DNA of 64,000 nucleotides from Escherichia phage LQ5. Numbering within the stretch: position 1 is the first letter of the stretch; the number at the start of each line of letters is the position of its first letter. Under the pieces are notes generated by a model. The model saw only the letters and a list, made by a program, of their open reading frames with translations, was not told the origin of the DNA and made no database searches. The DNA is taken from the sequence record OR677401. The stretch is one strand, 5' to 3'. Position numbers and translations under genes: made by a program. Positions 10,469 to 61,203 of this stretch are shown in pieces.

Positions 10469-10472
10469 TCAA

Positions 10473-10500
10473 AGGTCTCACTTCGGTGGGACCTTTTTTC
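10473..10500 (+). terminator. rho-independent terminator
   Basis: stem ggtctcac/gtgggacc (one G-U), loop ttcg, T-tract. Confidence 0.75.
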
Positions 10501-10508
10501 GTTTAGGT

Positions 10509-10537
10509 GTTTACATCCTCTAGGAACATGATACTAT
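10509..10537 (+). promoter_or_regulatory. T4-type early promoter
   Basis: GTTTAC ... GATACTATA GACCTATCAA. Confidence 0.65.
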
Positions 10538-10565
10538 AGACCTATCAACTAATGAGGAGAACAGT

Positions 10566-13362: not shown

Positions 13363-13551
13363 ATGAAGGTCTTTTTATCATATGGAAGACCCCATAAAAC
13401 CCGACGTTGGTATCTTGAAGCTGTCTGTAAAGAAACCGGACGTCGAGTCAATATCAAGTACGTGTGCAAACCTACGCCTAAACAGACAAGACAATTTGTT
13501 AACTGGGCTATAAATGATATACGCTTCCATAATTTTTGGAGCGCAATTTAG
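13363..13551 (+). CDS. hypothetical basic protein
   Basis: ORF ending inside terminator stem. Confidence 0.45.
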   Translation: MKVFLSYGRPHKTRRWYLEAVCKETGRRVNIKYVCKPTPKQTRQFVNWAINDIRFHNFWSAI

Positions 13552-13573
13552 GAACCTTCGGGTTCCTTTTTTG
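13551..13573 (+). terminator. rho-independent terminator
   Basis: ggaacc-ttcg-ggttcc then T6. Confidence 0.85.
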
Positions 13574-13620: not shown

Positions 13621-13657
13621 GGACCTATCAAATCTACTGAGTGAAATGGAGAATATA

Positions 13658-14991: not shown

Positions 14992-15020
14992 GTTTACATC
15001 TCCGGTAGAAATGATACTAT
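14992..15020 (+). promoter_or_regulatory. T4-type early promoter with SD-sequestering inverted repeat (covarying arms)
   Basis: arms atctccggtag (14998-15008) and ctactggaggt (15032-15042) pair fully when two G-U wobbles are allowed. Confidence 0.7.
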
Positions 15021-15046
15021 AGACCTATCAACTACTGGAGGTTATC

Positions 15047-15571: not shown

Positions 15572-15634
15572 ACGCTTTATACCAAGGATGGTATAATGGT
15601 TCTAGGTTCTTAATTACTTACTGAGGAAATTATT

Positions 15635-17567: not shown

Positions 17568-17597
17568 GTTTACATCCAAGGATGGATGGAGTATAAT
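17568..17597 (+). promoter_or_regulatory. sigma70-like early promoter
   Basis: GTTTAC, 18-nt spacer, TATAAT. Confidence 0.55.
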
Positions 17598-22371: not shown

Positions 22372-22400
22372 GTTTACTTCCTCTCCTCACGTGTTATAGT
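22372..22400 (+). promoter_or_regulatory. T4-type early promoter with SD-sequestering inverted repeat
   Basis: arms tcctcacgtgtt (22384-22395) and aacacatgagga (22411-22422). Confidence 0.6.
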
Positions 22401-22429
22401 CTATCCTATCAACACATGAGGAGAACATT

Positions 22430-23379: not shown

Positions 23380-23408
23380 TTTACAAACTCTTGGGACCAG
23401 AGTATAAT
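23380..23408 (+). promoter_or_regulatory. sigma70-like promoter with -10 inside a palindrome
   Basis: TTTACA, 17-nt spacer, TATAAT; inverted repeat tgggacca (23392-23399) / tggtccca (23408-23415). Confidence 0.5.
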
Positions 23409-23447
23409 GGTCCCACGGATTATAAATTTTTAACTGAGGAAATTATT

Positions 23448-23777
23448 ATGTCACAAGCTATTAAAAACGTACTGAACTCTTTCGCTTTCGATAAAGTAAA
23501 CGAACTGATGAATACCGGTTTTGTGACTCCTGAAATTCTTGACCAATGGGTTGCTGAACTGCTGCCAATCATGCACTCTAAAGACCAGAAAATTGGTAAG
23601 AACGGTATTCGTGAAATCCTGGTTCAATATATCCTTGATGAATTCGATGTCGCTGCCTTTGGTGTAGAATCTAAAGCTTGGGCCCCTGGTGAAATCACGG
23701 ATAAAACCATCCGTCGTATGAAAAACCAACGTAAGAAAAAATTCGTTGACCTGAAAATTGTTAAGGCAGCGAAATGA
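23448..23777 (+). CDS. hypothetical protein
   Basis: leader tgaggaaattattatg identical to the 15635 gene leader. Confidence 0.6.
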   Translation: MSQAIKNVLNSFAFDKVNELMNTGFVTPEILDQWVAELLPIMHSKDQKIGKNGIREILVQYILDEFDVAAFGVESKAWAPGEITDKTIRRMKNQRKKKFVDLKIVKAAK

Positions 23778-25693: not shown

Positions 25694-25867
25694 ATGACGA
25701 ATTCGATGGATTTTGATAAGATTAAATCTGACAAAAACGAGATGATACTTCAATTTGAAGCCGCTCGTATTAAAGCAGAAAATGAAGGTACTATTACCTA
25801 TAAGCCTATCAAGTTCAGGTCTAATCACGAACCTCTGTACGGTGTATTAGTTGGTAAAGGAGCTTAG
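25694..25867 (+). CDS. hypothetical small protein (57 aa)
   Basis: ends in terminator stem. Confidence 0.4.
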   Translation: MTNSMDFDKIKSDKNEMILQFEAARIKAENEGTITYKPIKFRSNHEPLYGVLVGKGA

Positions 25868-25878
25868 GCTCCTTTTTT
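25857..25878 (+). terminator. rho-independent terminator
   Basis: ggagc-ttag-gctcc then T6. Confidence 0.8.
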
Positions 25879-25907
25879 GCTTTCTAAACGGATGATAAAA
25901 TAAATCT

Positions 25908-26762
25908 ATGAAATACATTACATACCTGACAATATATTCCGGGACTAAGCTTCCACCGTTTTATATAGGGTCCACTACTTTAGAGAAGCATTTAAAAGGA
26001 TACCATGGGAGCGTCCTTTCTAAAGCATATAAAGAAATCTATAACAAGGAGCTTTTAGAGCATCCTGAATTATTTGACTCATGTATTGTAAGTGAACACC
26101 CTACAAGAGAAGAGGCTTTAGAAGCTGAAAGAATGTACCAGTTAAGAACCGATGCGGCCCAAAATCCTCTATTCTTTAATATGGCTGTCGCAGCTCCTAA
26201 AGGATTCTTTGGGCTTTCGCTACCTAAAGAGCAACACCCTCTTTACGGCTCTCATAATGCTAAAGGATATATTCATTCCTATAATCCTGTTACATTAGAA
26301 CAAACCTTTGCACCTACAGTCCCCGAAGGATACGTAGAAGGTCGTTCTCCTAATTATAAAGCGTCTAGTCATAATAAGGGTAAGAAGTGGTATAACAATG
26401 GCGTTGATAAAGGATTATTTGTAGAAGGAAAACAACCTGAATCTTGGGTCCTTGGCAGTTTTCTAACCGATGAACATAAGAAAAACTTGAAAAAGACCGA
26501 TGGGATATATGACCCTGATATTCAAAAAGAATTAAAAGAGCTTTGGATTTCTACTGGATTTTTGCCACCGTATAAATTTAGAGAAATAGCTTTAGCTAAA
26601 GGTTTTATGGATGGTAATTATCACAATTTGGTTTATAAAATTTTTAAGCCTACAGTTACAATTACTAGACCTAAGAAAATCTGGGCTAATGACGGCATAA
26701 AAAGCTTTATGATTTCTGAGATAGAATTTAATAGTGAAATACATTATAAAGGTAGATTATGA
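25908..26762 (+). CDS. GIY-YIG-like putative homing endonuclease
   Basis: YITYLTIYSGTKLPPFYIGST N-terminus; AT-rich; sits where T4 carries alpha-glucosyltransferase. Confidence 0.4.
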   Translation: MKYITYLTIYSGTKLPPFYIGSTTLEKHLKGYHGSVLSKAYKEIYNKELLEHPELFDSCIVSEHPTREEALEAERMYQLRTDAAQNPLFFNMAVAAPKGFFGLSLPKEQHPLYGSHNAKGYIHSYNPVTLEQTFAPTVPEGYVEGRSPNYKASSHNKGKKWYNNGVDKGLFVEGKQPESWVLGSFLTDEHKKNLKKTDGIYDPDIQKELKELWISTGFLPPYKFREIALAKGFMDGNYHNLVYKIFKPTVTITRPKKIWANDGIKSFMISEIEFNSEIHYKGRL

Positions 26763-33783: not shown

Positions 33784-33806
33784 AGGGACTTCGGTCCCCT
33801 TTTTGG
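33784..33806 (+). terminator. rho-independent terminator
   Basis: gggac-ttcg-gtccc then T-tract. Confidence 0.8.
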
Positions 33807-36576: not shown

Positions 36577-36606
36577 GTTTACATACCACAAGGAACGTGG
36601 TAGTAT
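36577..36606 (+). promoter_or_regulatory. T4-type early promoter
   Basis: GTTTAC ... TAGTAT then cctatcaac. Confidence 0.55.
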
Positions 36607-43298: not shown

Positions 43299-44722
43299 AA
43301 ACTATTTTGGCTCAACTGCTAGGCAATAGTGATTATTTCACTAAGGTCTGGCCTTATATGAATGATTCTTATTTTGACCAGGGTCCTGCAAAGACCCTTT
43401 TCAAAGAAATTAAAAAACATGTCAATGAATATAATGCAGTGCCTTCTAAGAACGCATTGAGCATTGCATTAGATAACAGTACGCTTTCAGAAGTTGAACA
43501 CCAAGGCGCTAAAGAGCTTTTAAGTTCGCTGAATGCCGGACCTGAAGACCAAGAATGGTTGGTTAAAGAGACGGAGAAATACGTTCAGAAAGCAGCGATG
43601 TATAATGCAACTTCAAAAATCATTGAAATCCAAACTAATGCCGACCTTCCGGTTGAGCAACAAAATAGAAAACTTCCAGGTATTGGTGCTATTCCGGATA
43701 TCATGCGTGATGCATTATCGATTTGTTTCGATTCTGAATTAGGTCATGACTGGATGGATGACTATGAAGAACGATTCAAAAGTTATTCCGATAAAGCACG
43801 TAAGGTTCCATTCCGTCTTAATATTCTGAATAAGATTACCAAGGGTGGTGCTGAGTTTGGTACTGAAAACGTATTGTTGGCAGGAACAAACGTAGGTAAG
43901 TCTCTTGGTCTTTGTTCATTGGCTGCTGATTACCTTCAATCTGGTTACGATGTTCTTTATATCTCCATGGAGATGGCAGAGGAAGTATGTGCTAAGCGTA
44001 TCGATGCCAACCTTCTGGACGTGTCGCTGGATGATATCGATGATGGTCACGTCTCGTGGCCTGAATATAAAGCTAAGATGGATAAATGGCGTTCAACTGC
44101 TACTTTAGGTCGTTTAAAGATTAAACAGTATCCTACTGGCGGTGCTAATGCCGATACATTCCGTGCATTATTAAACGAATACAAGCTCAAACAAAACTTT
44201 GTCCCACAGGTCGTTATCGTTGACTACTTGGCTATCTGTGCATCGTCTCGTACGAAAGTTTTCTCTGAAAACAGTTACGGATTGATTAAGATGGTTGCTG
44301 AAGAACTACGTGGACTTGCAGTAGAGAAGAAATTACTGTTGTGGACTGCAGCCCAGACTACTCGTGGTGCGAACGTTGCAGCCGAAATCGATATGGCCGA
44401 TATTGCTGAATCCTTTGGTATTGCACATACTGCAGACTTCATGTTGGGTGTGGTCGAGACAGAAGAGTTCGCTCAGATGGGTATGCAGATGGTTAAGCAG
44501 CTTAAATCTCGTTATGGTGATAAGAGCTACTACAACAAATTTAAGATTGGTGTTAAGAAAGGAAATCAACGTTGGTATGAAGTTGAAGACGATTCCAACC
44601 CAGGTCCAGTGAACACGGTACGTGAGGCTACAGGTGAGATGAATCGCCAAGCCGAGGTCAATCGACAGACGCGTGTTAATAGAAGTGATTTGGACGATTT
44701 AGCAGCATCTATCAAATTTTAA
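43283..44722 (+). CDS. 41: replicative DNA helicase gp41 (DnaB-like)
   Basis: Walker A GTNVGKSLGL; collinear with T4 gp41. Confidence 0.95.
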   Translation: MVEVVETILAQLLGNSDYFTKVWPYMNDSYFDQGPAKTLFKEIKKHVNEYNAVPSKNALSIALDNSTLSEVEHQGAKELLSSLNAGPEDQEWLVKETEKYVQKAAMYNATSKIIEIQTNADLPVEQQNRKLPGIGAIPDIMRDALSICFDSELGHDWMDDYEERFKSYSDKARKVPFRLNILNKITKGGAEFGTENVLLAGTNVGKSLGLCSLAADYLQSGYDVLYISMEMAEEVCAKRIDANLLDVSLDDIDDGHVSWPEYKAKMDKWRSTATLGRLKIKQYPTGGANADTFRALLNEYKLKQNFVPQVVIVDYLAICASSRTKVFSENSYGLIKMVAEELRGLAVEKKLLLWTAAQTTRGANVAAEIDMADIAESFGIAHTADFMLGVVETEEFAQMGMQMVKQLKSRYGDKSYYNKFKIGVKKGNQRWYEVEDDSNPGPVNTVREATGEMNRQAEVNRQTRVNRSDLDDLAASIKF

Positions 44723-44748
44723 GGAGCTTCGGCTCCTTTTTTGTTTTT
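44722..44748 (+). terminator. rho-independent terminator
   Basis: ggagc-ttcg-gctcc then T-tract. Confidence 0.85.
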
Positions 44749-44752
44749 AAGG

Positions 44753-44782
44753 GTTTACATCTCCTGTAGGCGTGATACTATA
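44753..44782 (+). promoter_or_regulatory. T4-type early promoter
   Basis: GTTTAC atctcctgtag ... GATACTATA. Confidence 0.7.
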
Positions 44783-44805
44783 GACCTATCAACTTGGAGA
44801 ACAAA

Positions 44806-45123
44806 ATGAAAACCATCGACTGTAAAGCAGAATATAAAGTGTATTATCACGGAAGTTGTAGTGTTGCTAATATCGGTAATATGCTTTGTCCTCCTGAGGA
44901 GACAGGAGTTCTGTCTGAAACCGGTCGTAAGAAAAACCTAAATCGTGTGTTCTTTACTGAAGATATCGGTTTGGCTAAGATTTATGCTGGACGTGCAGCT
45001 CGTTCAGTGGGAGGAGAACCCCGTCTTTATCGTGTAATTGCTCCGGTGGATGTGGTTTGTTTAAATGATACTAAAGGCGCTACGGTTTATCATGCTGAAT
45101 GGGCCTTCTGCGAGGAAATCTAA
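44806..45123 (+). CDS. hypothetical protein
   Basis: GGAGAA before ATG 44806. Confidence 0.6.
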   Translation: MKTIDCKAEYKVYYHGSCSVANIGNMLCPPEETGVLSETGRKKNLNRVFFTEDIGLAKIYAGRAARSVGGEPRLYRVIAPVDVVCLNDTKGATVYHAEWAFCEEI

Positions 45124-45700: not shown

Positions 45701-45730
45701 GTTTACAACGGTCTATGGTAGTGATACTAT
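45701..45730 (+). promoter_or_regulatory. T4-type early promoter
   Basis: GTTTAC ... GATACTATGGACCTATCAA. Confidence 0.7.
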
Positions 45731-45758
45731 GGACCTATCAACTACCGAGGAGAACATT

Positions 45759-48378: not shown

Positions 48379-49035
48379 ATGAATTACGAAAAAATATACC
48401 AGGAATTAATATCTAAAGGAAAATTAAGAGGTTCTAAGCGGTCTTTATCATATTATACGGAAGAACACCATGTTATACCTAGATGTATGAATGGTTCTGA
48501 TGATAAAAACAATTTAGTTGCTTTATTGCCAAGAGAACACTTTGTAGCTCATAGGCTTTTAACAAAAATATATCCCGAAGTAAAAGGTCTACATTATGCT
48601 GTTAATTTAATGAGATATAATAAAGGAGTTAAATTAACTAGTAGAACTATAGCCACGTTAAGAGAAAATAACGCTAAAGCATTTTCAGGAAAAAATAACC
48701 CGATGTTTGGTAAACCTTCCTGGATTAGAGGGATGAAAACTCCTGAAGAAACTAAAGCCAAAATGCGCCTGGCTCATAAAGATAAAATTATATCTGATGA
48801 AGCCAAGGCCAATATGAGTAAAGCTAGAAAAGGAAGATTTAGTGGTAAAGATTCCCCTAGATATGGTTTACCGAATCCTAGGCGTGGAGAAATATGGAAT
48901 AGTTACGATATGCTTTACGAATTATGGGTTTACAATAATAAACCTAAACGCACCAAATTTAATAAAATAGCTGTTGATAATGGATATCCTGATATTTGTT
49001 ATCGACGAATGATAGAAAACTTTAATAGGAAATAA
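48379..49035 (+). CDS. HNH homing endonuclease with C-terminal DNA-binding repeats
   Basis: EEHHVIPRCMNGSDDKNNLVALLPREHFVAHRL HNH core; repeats NNPMFGK, TPEETKAKM, SDEAKANMSKARKG; AT-rich. Confidence 0.8.
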   Translation: MNYEKIYQELISKGKLRGSKRSLSYYTEEHHVIPRCMNGSDDKNNLVALLPREHFVAHRLLTKIYPEVKGLHYAVNLMRYNKGVKLTSRTIATLRENNAKAFSGKNNPMFGKPSWIRGMKTPEETKAKMRLAHKDKIISDEAKANMSKARKGRFSGKDSPRYGLPNPRRGEIWNSYDMLYELWVYNNKPKRTKFNKIAVDNGYPDICYRRMIENFNRK

Positions 49036-49840: not shown

Positions 49841-49868
49841 AAGGAACCTTCGGGTTCCTTTTTTGGTT
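49841..49868 (+). terminator. rho-independent terminator
   Basis: ggaacc-ttcg-ggttcc then T-tract. Confidence 0.85.
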
Positions 49869-52109: not shown

Positions 52110-52138
52110 TTTACAGGCAAGGAAGCTTGTGGTACTAT
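52109..52138 (+). promoter_or_regulatory. T4-type early promoter
   Basis: GTTTAC ... GGTACTATC. Confidence 0.55.
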
Positions 52139-56217: not shown

Positions 56218-56246
56218 GTTTACTTCTCCTCATGACATGATATTAT
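56218..56246 (+). promoter_or_regulatory. T4-type early promoter with SD-sequestering inverted repeat
   Basis: arms ttctcctcatg (56224-56234) and catgaggagaa (56259-56269), perfect 11 bp. Confidence 0.7.
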
Positions 56247-56273
56247 CTACCCTATCAACATGAGGAGAACAAA

Positions 56274-56783
56274 ATGAAAATTTATCGAGTGGAGTCATCG
56301 TTCAGTATCTTAGATAACAGCGATGTTATAGCAATCACTCACCAACAGTGCCGCCAATTAACACCGTATAGAGGCTCGTTTGATGAATGGAGCGAAGGTT
56401 GGTTATTAGAAGTAGGTTTCGACAAACCTAATTTTAGACACCACCATACCAATAATAAAAATATTCCACTACCAGGTCAAGACAAGTTGTTGGTGGAAAA
56501 TTCTAATAAAACCATTCGAACTAAGTGGAACCAGCCTGATTATGAAGGCTGTGATGATTATATTCCAGGTTGGTTTGTTAATCTCTACCATTTTGCTTTT
56601 GCCAGTGAGTATGATATGATGCGCTGGTTCACTCGTGAAGAGCGTGAAGAATTATCTTCTAAAGGATTCTATCTTGCCGTTTACGAAATCCCTGAAGATG
56701 AGGTTGTCATTGGTGGCCGCCAAGTAATGTTCCGCAAATCCCATGCTGAACTCGTAGATTTTATTGAATTGAGAACAATATGA
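56274..56783 (+). CDS. hypothetical protein
   Basis: ORF 169 aa. Confidence 0.65.
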   Translation: MKIYRVESSFSILDNSDVIAITHQQCRQLTPYRGSFDEWSEGWLLEVGFDKPNFRHHHTNNKNIPLPGQDKLLVENSNKTIRTKWNQPDYEGCDDYIPGWFVNLYHFAFASEYDMMRWFTREEREELSSKGFYLAVYEIPEDEVVIGGRQVMFRKSHAELVDFIELRTI

Positions 56784-57328
56784 AATTTAATTACAACCCT
56801 AAATACACCCCGAATCCGGCAGCTAAACTGATTGATTTTGATGTTTTAAGCACTTATGTATGCCCTGTTAAACCACTGGAAATTAAGGAACCTGCTATGA
56901 ATACTCAGACTATCGAAATCGGCAAAACCTACAAACTGGTTGAACCTGAAATTAAAACTAAGGCCTTGATTTCTGGCCATAAAACTCTGACTGAGGTTTT
57001 TGGCGAAGGCGAATTTATTGTTGAAGAATTTACCAAAAGTGAGTGGTTCTCTAAAGCCTATATTCTCCACGGCCGTCGTTTAGACAATAACAAAATTGAG
57101 CAAACCCTGGTTTATGAAGCAGAGTTAATCCTGTTCCAAGAAGTTGAAGAACAAGACCCTACCGACCTTCTAACTCGTGCTGTGTCTATCCGTCGTCCTT
57201 TTGATAATCCTATCTGTGGTTGGGTAACAGACCAGTGGGTTGAAGACGGTGTTGAGCTGCTGAACGTTGTACATGCTGGTGATTTTAGCGTAGTACCTCG
57301 TAGTGCAGTGGTTAATGTATTGAATTAG
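56780..57328 (+). CDS. hypothetical protein, paralogue A
   Basis: C-terminus GWVTDQWVEDGVELLNVVHAGDFSVVPRS shared with next gene. Confidence 0.65.
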   Translation: MKFNYNPKYTPNPAAKLIDFDVLSTYVCPVKPLEIKEPAMNTQTIEIGKTYKLVEPEIKTKALISGHKTLTEVFGEGEFIVEEFTKSEWFSKAYILHGRRLDNNKIEQTLVYEAELILFQEVEEQDPTDLLTRAVSIRRPFDNPICGWVTDQWVEDGVELLNVVHAGDFSVVPRSAVVNVLN

Positions 57329-57330
57329 TA

Positions 57331-57359
57331 GTTTACTTTATCGAGAGCCATGTTATAAT
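57331..57359 (+). promoter_or_regulatory. sigma70-like promoter with -10 inside a palindrome
   Basis: GTTTAC ... TATAAT; inverted repeat gagagccat (57344-57352) / atggctctc (57359-57367). Confidence 0.55.
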
Positions 57360-57401
57360 GGCTCTCATGGAGAATAAACTTATTAACCAAGAGAGAAAAT
57401 T

Positions 57402-57953
57402 ATGATTACTATCGGTGAAATTGTTCGTGTATCCAAAGAATCTCGCTCAAAAGCCGCAGGTCGTTTTGTTGAAGTTGCAGGTATTCGTACTAATTTAGTA
57501 GGCGGAATTAAAGAAGTTAAAGTGCGTATTATTCCTAAAAATGGCCATACCGAAACCGAATTTGCCTATGTGCATCCTAAATTCTTGGAATCGACTGAAT
57601 TTACTGGACACATCGCTCCTGTAGTTGAAGAAGTTGAATCCCATGATGGGTATGTATGTGAAAGCAATGATATCCGTGGCGTAGTAGCTCAAGACGTTGA
57701 AACTATTGACCAATCTCATGTTGGTGTTGATTTCAAATGGAAATTAGGTAAAGGTGTCTTTTTCGTTTCACCTAAACCGTTTGAATACAATTGCAAGTAT
57801 GGCCCGACTTATGAAACCACTAGTATGTCCGGTTACATCACAGACCAATGGGTTGAAGAAGGTGTTAAGCTGTATAACATCGTGTTCCTTGGCACCTTTA
57901 AAGTAGTTCCTGAAAGTTTTATTGTTGAGTACGCTGATATTCATTTTGCATAA
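57402..57953 (+). CDS. hypothetical protein, paralogue B
   Basis: C-terminus GYITDQWVEEGVKLYNIVFLGTFKVVPES. Confidence 0.65.
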   Translation: MITIGEIVRVSKESRSKAAGRFVEVAGIRTNLVGGIKEVKVRIIPKNGHTETEFAYVHPKFLESTEFTGHIAPVVEEVESHDGYVCESNDIRGVVAQDVETIDQSHVGVDFKWKLGKGVFFVSPKPFEYNCKYGPTYETTSMSGYITDQWVEEGVKLYNIVFLGTFKVVPESFIVEYADIHFA

Positions 57954-58025
57954 AGTTTAAAAACAGTATACACTATGGTAGGGTAGTGATACTATTACCC
58001 TATCAACAAATGAGAGGAAAATAAA

Positions 58026-59086: not shown

Positions 59087-59104
59087 GGGCTTCGGCCCTT
59101 TTAT
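59086..59104 (+). terminator. probable rho-independent terminator
   Basis: gggc-ttcg-gccc then TTTTA. Confidence 0.55.
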
Positions 59105-61176: not shown

Positions 61177-61183
61177 ACTAATA

Positions 61184-61203
61184 AGGGCCTTCGGGCCCTT
61201 TTC
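61184..61203 (+). terminator. rho-independent terminator
   Basis: gggcc-ttcg-ggccc then TTTT. Confidence 0.7.

Follow-up and report, generated by a model that had tools for sequence, protein, structure and literature searches.

The 64,000-nucleotide (nt) stretch of Escherichia phage LQ5 (sequence record OR677401) analysed here, called the window throughout, carries three perfect inverted repeats that overlap the -10 regions of predicted early promoters. The homologues of T4 55.3 and 55.2 flank site 1, and site 2 is directly 5' of the motB homologue, these genes being named from the Bp7 and WG01 annotations; site 3 lies 5' of an open reading frame (ORF) of 70 amino acids without assigned function. 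About 2 kb around site 1 was 90-95% identical to the Dhakavirus phages QL01, Bp7, WG01, JS98 and IME08, and the site 2 region was 99.3% identical to Escherichia phage LHE83. By sequence the window is assigned to Dhakavirus, as a JS98/Bp7-like relative of T4; almost all of its genes are on the + strand, and regB is among them. The three sites are very probably cassettes of the promoter-early stem-loop (PeSL) type known from T4-type phages (Arbiol et al. 2010, PMC2839356; Comeau et al. 2014, PMC4122927), with a hairpin that works at the level of RNA.

The inverted repeats were all confirmed to be perfect, with arms that are unrelated in sequence from site to site, as originally predicted (Table 1). 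The prediction had given them as palindromes of 8-9 base pairs (bp); the repeat of site 2 was found one base to the left of the predicted 57344-57367, at 57343-57366, and that of site 3 proved to be 10 bp long (323-350). The -10 element had been placed between the arms in each case, which holds for sites 1 and 2, where the hexamer belongs to the loop except for the final one or two bases, which are part of the 3' arm. For site 3 the proposed element 'gtgtgata' is questionable. Relatives have TTTACA at 317-322, and with a spacer of 16 bp the -10 of site 3 is therefore TACTAT at 339-344, partly in the loop and partly in the 3' arm. The site is a member of a large promoter family of the window with the consensus TTTACA-N16-tGaTACTATAGACCTATCAAC; GATACT as the -10 of this family was ruled out by the spacing, and TACTAT with a TG extension was adopted instead.

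Table 1. Positions of the three promoter hairpins and their elements, of genes that they serve and of further cassettes in the window (SD, Shine-Dalgarno sequence)
Feature	Position	Strand	Remarks
Site 1 -35 hexamer TTTACA	23380-23385	+	follows the 55.3-like ORF and its stop codon with no gap
Site 1 inverted repeat	23392-23415	+	8-bp arms TGGGACCA/TGGTCCCA, 8-nt loop GAGTATAA at 23400-23407
Site 1 5' arm TGGGACCA	23392-23399	+	in promoter spacer, about -23 to -16
Site 1 -10 hexamer TATAAT	23403-23408	+	in loop, final base in 3' arm
Site 1 3' arm TGGTCCCA	23408-23415	+	discriminator; predicted +1 A23415, 7 nt after -10
Site 1 RegB/S1-type motif GGATTATAAAT	23417-23427	+	1 nt past hairpin; type GGA(G/U)RAYARAA
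55.2 homologue (DUF7570), served by site 1	23448-23777	+	SD GAGGAA at 23436-23441
Site 2 -35 hexamer TTTACT	57332-57337	+	
Site 2 inverted repeat	57343-57366	+	9-bp arms GAGAGCCAT/ATGGCTCTC, loop GTTATA at 57352-57357
Site 2 5' arm GAGAGCCAT	57343-57351	+	in spacer
Site 2 -10 hexamer TATAAT	57354-57359	+	preceded by TGt (extended -10); final two bases in 3' arm
Site 2 3' arm ATGGCTCTC	57358-57366	+	
Site 2 RegB-type motif GGAGAATAAAC	57369-57379	+	10/11 match to RegB consensus; 2 nt past hairpin
motB homologue, served by site 2	57402-57953	+	
Site 3 -35 hexamer TGTACA	317-322	+	TTTACA in relatives L054 and L057
Site 3 inverted repeat	323-350	+	10-bp arms AGGTCTATAG/CTATAGACCT, 8-nt loop GTGTGATA at 333-340
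Site 3 5' arm AGGTCTATAG	323-332	+	in spacer
Site 3 extended -10 TGATACTAT	336-344	+	hexamer TACTAT 339-344; two bases in loop, four in 3' arm
Site 3 3' arm CTATAGACCT	341-350	+	conserved box after the -10 of its promoter family; predicted +1 A351
Further cassette, TTTACA-N17-TACTAT	45710-45735	+	11-bp hairpin GGTCTATGGTA/TACTATGGACC with 2 G.U pairs, covers -10
Further cassette 5' of cef homologue	57976-58005	+	hairpin of up to 13 bp, covers TACTAT -10

The spacings of the three promoters (TTTACA-17-TATAAT at site 1, TTTACT-16-TATAAT at site 2 and TGTACA-16-TACTAT with the TG extension at site 3) identify them as predicted ordinary sigma-70 early promoters, those of sites 1 and 2 being near consensus. 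They had been proposed to form a second promoter class. Their -35 and -10 elements and spacing are, however, the same as those of the other sigma-70-type early promoters of the window, and the hairpin is an overlay. Nor did the suggested comparison with MotA/AsiA-dependent promoters place them in that type, as no MotA box (TGCTT-type near -30) was present at sites 1-3, which have T(T/G)TAC(A/T) at -35 instead. The gap between the upstream stop codon and the -35 is 0, 3 and 13 nt at sites 1, 2 and 3. The 25 nt 5' of the -35 contain 84%, 72% and 72% A+T, respectively, against 61% in the window, a modest excess at sites 2 and 3. Between the end of the hairpin and the ATG there are 31-35 nt, which include an SD at all three sites. 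The 5' arm occupies about -23 to -16, in the spacer just 5' of the extended -10 position, and the 3' arm about -7 to +1, which is the discriminator; the hairpin arms thus occupy promoter positions that RNA polymerase does not read and that are under little sequence constraint. Start sites predicted from the usual 7-nt distance from the -10 (A23415 at site 1, A351 at site 3) would coincide with the last base of the stem or the next base. A late-promoter reading of 'TATAAAT' after site 1 was dropped, as TATAAATA is not kept by the orthologues.

The overlap of -10 and hairpin is non-random, far beyond chance. Perfect stems of at least 8 bp around the -10 were found in two of the ten strongest + strand promoter matches, against a mean of 0.0044 when the bases in the spacer and those further downstream were shuffled in these ten; two such stems were reached in 0 of 5000 shuffles. 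The stems of sites 1-3 (perfect, 8-10 bp) have stabilities of -15 to -20 kcal/mol, and the folding z-scores of the three sites were -3.5, -6.9 and -3.7. Flanking stems of at least 7 bp were rare in general, occurring at 8 of the 644 -10-like hexamers of the window; five of these eight are intergenic and just 5' of genes (four early-promoter cassettes and the leader of gene e). A scan of the whole window with Rfam gave no family above threshold.

Evidence on the nature of the structure came from relatives in IMG/VR, where 43 loci with a 55.2 homologue, nine loci for the motB junction and six for site 3 were compared. The hairpin at the 55.3/55.2 junction has persisted through changes of its arms: TGGGACCA/TGGTCCCA in the window is replaced by GGGAGCA/TGCTCTC, by GAGAGA/TCTCTC, by TGAGGAC/GTCCTCA in Klebsiella phage Marfa (Marfavirus) and by GGGTCAT/ATGACCC in VR20 (Gaprivervirus). 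Because the early-type cassettes all have the same -35/-10 layout, they could be aligned on the -10, independently of structure. This alignment, A1, was reproduced by MAFFT and contains 22 distinct cassettes, related by descent, from Dhakavirus, Gaprivervirus, Marfavirus and others. In its helix (columns 21-28 with 37-44) 94.1% of the cells were paired, compared with 77.4% after shuffling (0/500) and 33-51% when the partner was slid by 1-3 columns. Both sides had changed in six of the eight pairs, and the covariation score of 0.647 was well above that of shuffled (0.290; 0/500) and slid (at most 0.19) alignments. Some of the changes are flips of C-G to G-C, for which no wobble intermediate is possible. 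The stem register relative to the -10 is identical in sites 1 and 2 and in all their relatives.

The irregular pairs are of one kind. In the six internal pairs of A1, eight G.U cells, read on the + strand, were the sole non-Watson-Crick combinations and there was no A.C. This asymmetry points to selection on the sense-strand RNA, since a structure needed on both strands of the DNA would tolerate either neither or both of the two mismatch types. Of the explanations offered at the outset, RNA hairpins in read-through transcripts is the one that is supported, by the compensatory changes, the restriction of mismatches to G.U and the predicted start at the end of the hairpin. An independent scan of IMG/VR with ACTCTTG-N6-GAGTATAAT, which constrains the 5' arm only as N6 and leaves the 3' side free, returned 36 distinct sequences. 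All 24 matches preceded by T[TGA]TACA came from T4-like genomes and each had a helix of 7-8 bp between the N6 and the downstream bases; seven different stems were present among them, and irregular pairs were again only G.U, with no A.C. Eleven of the 12 matches without such a -35, from unrelated contigs, had no helix.

The hairpin also outlasts the promoter. Karamvirus-like 55.2 junctions have a promoter with a MotA-box-like TTTGCTA, and still there is a hairpin of 11-17 bp around the -10, with stems of differing sequence. The evidence for these MotA-type junctions consists of folds of the single sequences, which had -13 to -18 kcal/mol in all but L025 (-6.8); their joint treatment with MAFFT and RNAalifold broke the stems in the alignment and gave a weak consensus of -4.2 kcal/mol. 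In locus L026 both the -35 and the -10 have been lost and the hairpin GAGGAC-CTAGT-GTCCTC retained. The same spot has no promoter in Yersinia phage ZN18 and other members of Tequatrovirus and is taken up there by a canonical terminator, AAGGGC-TTCG-GCCCTTTTTT. What is conserved at the 55.3/55.2 boundary is therefore an RNA hairpin, and the promoter is optional. The original prediction had named relatives with conserved promoters and missing palindromes as the case that would speak against it; the opposite was found, with the palindromes kept in relatives and, in L026, a hairpin that has survived its promoter. In MotA-type junctions L009 and L020-L042, about 40-90 nt 5' of the ATG, the TTTG of the MotA box was seen to pair with the conserved CAAA of a downstream motif, ATGTCAAA, so that one hairpin of 15-17 bp encloses the entire middle promoter, which extends from the -30 box to about +3.

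The same design recurs at other loci. The motB promoter of Tequatrovirus also has its -10 in a hairpin loop (cassette agTTTACAaactcttGGGACCAgagTATAATGGTCCTgtGGAGTATAAAA), and the motB position of Gaprivervirus genomes is occupied by a cassette of the site 1 type, which includes the compensatory variant GGGGTCA/TGACCCC. In the IMG/VR scan 2-4 copies per genome were found, at different loci. In L057 the sequence 5' of site 3 is replaced exactly at the -35, and promoter cassettes border several of the indels that distinguish the window from Bp7. As judged from the sequences at such individual loci, and not from genome-wide statistics, the cassettes are mobile.

A second conserved element directly follows the hairpin. 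In A1 a GGA is invariant 1-3 nt past the helix and is followed by (G/U)nAYAAA, as in GGATTATAAAT at site 1 and GGAGAATAAAC at site 2. The position of the site 1 motif is held by GGATAATAAAA at the 55.2 junction of Marfavirus, Gaprivervirus and Tequatrovirus, and that of the site 2 motif by GGAGTATAAAA at the motB promoter of Tequatrovirus; orthologues of the two motifs are perfect GGAUAAUAAAA or GGAUAACAAAA. These sequences resemble the sites of the phage endoribonuclease RegB, for which the strong RegB/S1 consensus is GGAGRAYARAA, cut after GG, with GGAU tolerated (Durand et al. 2006, PMC1702504). In that study the motB substrate, cleaved in T4, was GGAG followed by U-A-U-A-A-A-A, in the leader GGAGUAUAAAA, and exactly this sequence stands 2 nt past the hairpin of the Tequatrovirus motB promoter. 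The passages of the same paper on ORF 55.2 report that T4 RegB cuts a GGAU there (Durand et al. 2006, PMC1702504). Given the orthologous position of the motifs, the T4 counterparts of sites 1 and 2 are therefore published RegB cleavage sites. There are two GGAU 5' of T4 55.2, and the one next to the hairpin is probably the one that is cut, because it fits the strict A-rich context that GGAU needs (Durand et al. 2006, PMC1702504) and the one in the SD does not. RegB sites have been defined as single-stranded 11-mers, with no requirement on their 5' side, and a conserved 5' hairpin is not part of their description.

RegB/S1 motifs were also seen elsewhere in the window. Perfect ones directly precede start codons of + strand early genes at 372-382, 44796-44806, 56264-56274 and 25890-25900, and motifs with one mismatch at 13648, 52154, 3836, 10556 and 58016; most of these start-codon motifs (GGAGAATAAAA, GGAGAACAAAA, GGATGATAAAA) also serve as the SD. 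The motif at 25890 follows a terminator hairpin at 25856-25875, as at the T4-type 55.2 junction.

Several features make the PeSL cassettes the nearest known relatives of sites 1-3. Those cassettes are likewise intergenic, with an A+T-rich stretch, a sigma-70-like -35 and -10 about 17 bp apart, and then the SD and ATG; in RB49 and phi1 the stem-loop is mostly between -35 and -10 or overlaps the -10, and G-T pairs occur in the stems. They are present in many copies per genome, preferentially in plastic regions with small ORFs, indels and cassette exchange, and are further characterised by a stem-loop that lowers downstream expression and by recombination into mini-circles. In contrast to the present sites, they were described for RB49/phi1, T4/PST and KVP40/nt-1, with only the g43 locus mentioned among phages of the JS98 type, and the stems of sites 1-3 are not polyG/polyC. 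The PeSL papers contain no report of covariation, of sense-strand G.U asymmetry, of a coincidence of stem end and start, of an adjacent RegB motif or of RNases, and the coupling of hairpin and RegB site is described in neither the PeSL nor the RegB literature. The covariation, the start-site geometry and the RegB link are thus new for PeSL cassettes of Dhakavirus, as a modest addition of detail.

The T4 genes e, soc, 49 and I-TevI provide another precedent, in which a promoter inside a hairpin serves translational control (Uzan & Miller 2010, PMC3014915). There too the promoter is in or beside the 5' arm, so that read-through RNA folds and the local transcript is without the 5' arm. In those genes, however, the SD or the AUG forms the 3' arm, the promoter is a late one and translation is what is affected, whereas at sites 1-3 the SD is 20-30 nt past the hairpin and unpaired; pairing of the arms with the downstream SD was looked for at sites 1-3 and not found. 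The T4-type control of lysozyme translation is itself present in the window, in the leader of gene e (lysozyme) at 2560-2596, where a late promoter TATAAATA and a hairpin AATACCTCCT-ATACTC-AGGAGGTATT, which sequesters the SD, are followed by the ATG. Intrinsic terminators and intercistronic 3' stabilisers, such as the UUCG-loop hairpins of T4 or repetitive extragenic palindrome (REP)-type elements, similarly place a G+C-rich stem-loop at a cistron boundary. Sites 1-3 differ from them in having no U-tract and in a hairpin that is superimposed on the promoter, not placed before it.

These observations can be joined in the following way. The spacer and the discriminator would have co-evolved to be complementary, and the -10, as the element that is not free to change, would lie within the loop or at its edge. 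With the start at the end of the stem, only read-through RNA from the upstream gene would fold the hairpin, and the local transcript would be without it. In read-through RNA the hairpin would then delimit the upstream cistron at its 3' end. Cleavage by RegB at 3-5 nt past the hairpin, or else pausing or partial termination, would leave a 3'-terminal stem-loop on the upstream mRNA and shield this message from 3' exonucleases. The fate of the upstream message would thereby be separated from that of the downstream gene, which would be expressed mainly from its own promoter. The local transcript would carry the RegB site at about +3 to +14, where cleavage would remove its 5' triphosphate end; a decay route through RegB, PNK and RNase E/G has been published, and such a removal fits it. 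On balance we lean towards this explanation as a whole, that is, PeSL cassettes with a hairpin selected as RNA and a function at the cistron boundary. The specific role of the hairpin in 3'-end formation and RegB processing is put forward more tentatively, as a possibility that falls somewhat short of being probable.

A number of points weigh against it. The start sites, and with them the hairpin-free local transcript, were derived from the usual 7-nt rule. The cassettes share descent, which the shuffle control ignores, and a C-to-T bias on the non-template strand could inflate the G.U excess. Covariation covers the family of sites 1 and 2, as the stem of site 3 is invariant in its six loci and has no divergent relatives. 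After the three hairpins a U-run was looked for and none was found, so that they are not canonical terminators. The motif of site 1, GGAUUAUAAAU, departs from the strict A-rich consensus by a U at positions 5 and 11, and in the MotA-type orthologues the GGA(G/U) motif is missing after the hairpin, so that the coupling of hairpin and RegB site is not universal. Finally, the RegB pattern was not enriched window-wide, with 31 matches against 24 expected, and the RegB link therefore rests on position and orthology and not on frequency.

The model of the PeSL authors, in which the hairpins are terminators or attenuators for RNA polymerase arriving from upstream and keep transcription from building up across successive early promoters, is unlikely for these sites, although as regards function it is the main rival. 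One PeSL stem-loop of RB49 was as effective as rrnB T1 in lowering the expression of lacZ (Arbiol et al. 2010, PMC2839356), the canonical terminator of the Tequatrovirus 55.3/55.2 junction is at the spot of the promoter hairpin of the window, and other cassettes of the window carry UUCG-loop terminators just 5' of the -35. That assay, however, used another stem-loop, and the sequences that follow the three stems here (CGGAUUAU, AUGGAGAA, AUCAAAAC) contain no U-run; none of the three was returned by the terminator scan. As a rule, E. coli RNA polymerase is not released at hairpins that lack a U-tract. A role of the inverted repeats as DNA, either through cruciform or slipped structures by which supercoiling would modulate the opening of the promoter, or as recombination hot spots for the cassettes, seems improbable. 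The presence of cassettes at different loci in different genomes, with indels in their flanks, would suit it, as would the fact that the three stems of the window are perfect palindromes and fold almost equally on either strand. In relatives, however, the imperfect pairs are all G.T on the + strand and never A.C, which weakens the hairpin of the - strand, and a cruciform needs both; recombination, in turn, needs sequence identity and not intramolecular complementarity, so that the compensatory changes would be left unexplained. The cruciform-prone elements of the original prediction are disfavoured by this strand asymmetry and by the short stems with loops of 6-8 nt, since stems of 8-10 bp with such loops are poor cruciform formers. 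A cruciform-regulated promoter is reportedly due to Horwitz and Loeb, who in 1988 are said to have engineered a -10 region into an artificial palindrome with supercoil-driven extrusion of the DNA; a palindrome surrounds the -10 there as it does here, whereas the evidence for sites 1-3 points to RNA.

An operator role of the repeats, with a dimeric regulator from phage or host that shuts off or activates a special promoter class, is scarcely credible. A dyad with its centre at the -10 is a classical arrangement for repressors, yet the three sites have no arm sequence in common, and orthologous arms have been replaced with pairing kept (GGGACCA, GGGAGCA, GAGAGCA, TGAGGAC, GGGTCAT). Half-changes of the G.U type moreover break the symmetry of the DNA. 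The operator reading was rejected because a protein site would conserve bases and not complementarity. It is also very improbable that the palindromes have no function and are due to chance or are the neutral legacy of a duplicated cassette. Close relatives do share the cassettes by descent, and site 3 has no informative variation, but the shuffle test, the two-sided changes including transversion flips, the retention of the hairpin in L026 after promoter loss and the control matches without a helix in the IMG/VR scan all speak against it.

The reading of the hairpins as RNA elements at cistron boundaries can be extended, more doubtfully, to early and some middle promoters of Tevenvirinae in general. 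These promoters might be 'transcript-origin discriminators', with the hairpin and the RegB site as one co-evolving processing module. The spacer would encode the 5' arm, so that RNA from upstream folds and locally started RNA stays open; the fold would be either a boundary hairpin against a RegB site, as at sites 1 and 2, or a helix that sequesters the SD, as in cassettes of the form TTTACA-anti-SD-TACTAT...SD. If this were true, the module would determine where the upstream message ends and how stable it is, and would strip the triphosphate from the local transcript.

An anti-SD arrangement was observed at TTTACA-N16-TACTAT early promoters of the window at 3797-3840, 6608-6652, 14998-15043, 22382-22424 and 56224-56267 and, more weakly, at 10512-10560 and 44750-44806. 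In these cassettes the spacer is an anti-SD sequence and forms 10-12 bp with the SD of the gene that follows (for example ATCTCCTGTAGT ... ACTACAGGAGAT, 12 bp and perfect), and the -10 and the conserved ATAGACCTATCAAC box are in a large loop. The SD would be sequestered in read-through RNA and free in RNA from the local promoter, which is the logic of T4 e, soc and 49 at early promoters.

For annotation it follows that such sites should not be called operators or a new promoter class. A hairpin under selection at the RNA level, confined to the promoter positions that are not read by RNA polymerase and next to a RegB site, would give the PeSL idea a concrete and testable molecular role, and would link two literatures that have been unconnected, those on the shuffling of regulatory cassettes and on the inactivation of early mRNA by RegB. 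Within 60-80 nt between genes, T4-type phages accommodate not only a promoter and a ribosome-binding site but also an RNA structure and a processing site, and in the design of synthetic phage promoters, changes in the spacer or discriminator can alter the fate of the upstream mRNA.

Further hairpins were found at other promoters of the window besides the two cassettes listed in Table 1, of which the one 5' of the cef homologue has a perfect core of TAGGGTA/TACCCTA at 57979-58002. Three early promoters have a hairpin inside the -35/-10 spacer, at 17574-17589 (ATCCA/TGGAT), 36586-36604 (TACCAC/GTGGTA) and 52110-52130 (ACAGGCAAG/CTTGTGGT); that at 36586-36604 extends to the first bases of the -10, and all three fit the subclass of PeSL cassettes that is named 'between -35 and -10'. 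A further group, at 10471-10496, 13550-13567, 44721-44738, 49841-49860, 61183-61200, 59087-59100 and 33785-33798, consists of canonical terminator hairpins that combine UUCG-type tetraloops with T-runs. Most of them are directly 5' of the -35 of an early promoter, which is the other PeSL subclass, as in T4/PST. At 15577-15596 a hairpin TTATACCA-AGGA-TGGTATAA has TATAAT in its 3' arm, 12 bp after a MotA-box-like CGCTTTA, possibly a middle promoter in which hairpin and -10 overlap in the same way.

Among the genes, two adjacent MotB-like paralogues of about 183 amino acids each (56780-57328 and 57402-57953) have the C-terminal motif ITDQWVE(D/E)GV(E/K)L in common, and the cassette of site 2 is exactly between them. 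A 284-amino-acid ORF at 25908-26762 (+) had no Pfam match, and the segment that holds it (25921-26734, about 815 bp) had no blastn match in the Bp7 stretch L044 (record 3000-36000). The ORF of 218 amino acids at 48379-49035 (+) combines a NUMOD3 motif (Pfam, E = 1e-6) with an HNH-like EHHVIPR...N...H stretch and is probably a free-standing homing endonuclease; a short - strand ORF beside it is likely to be spurious.

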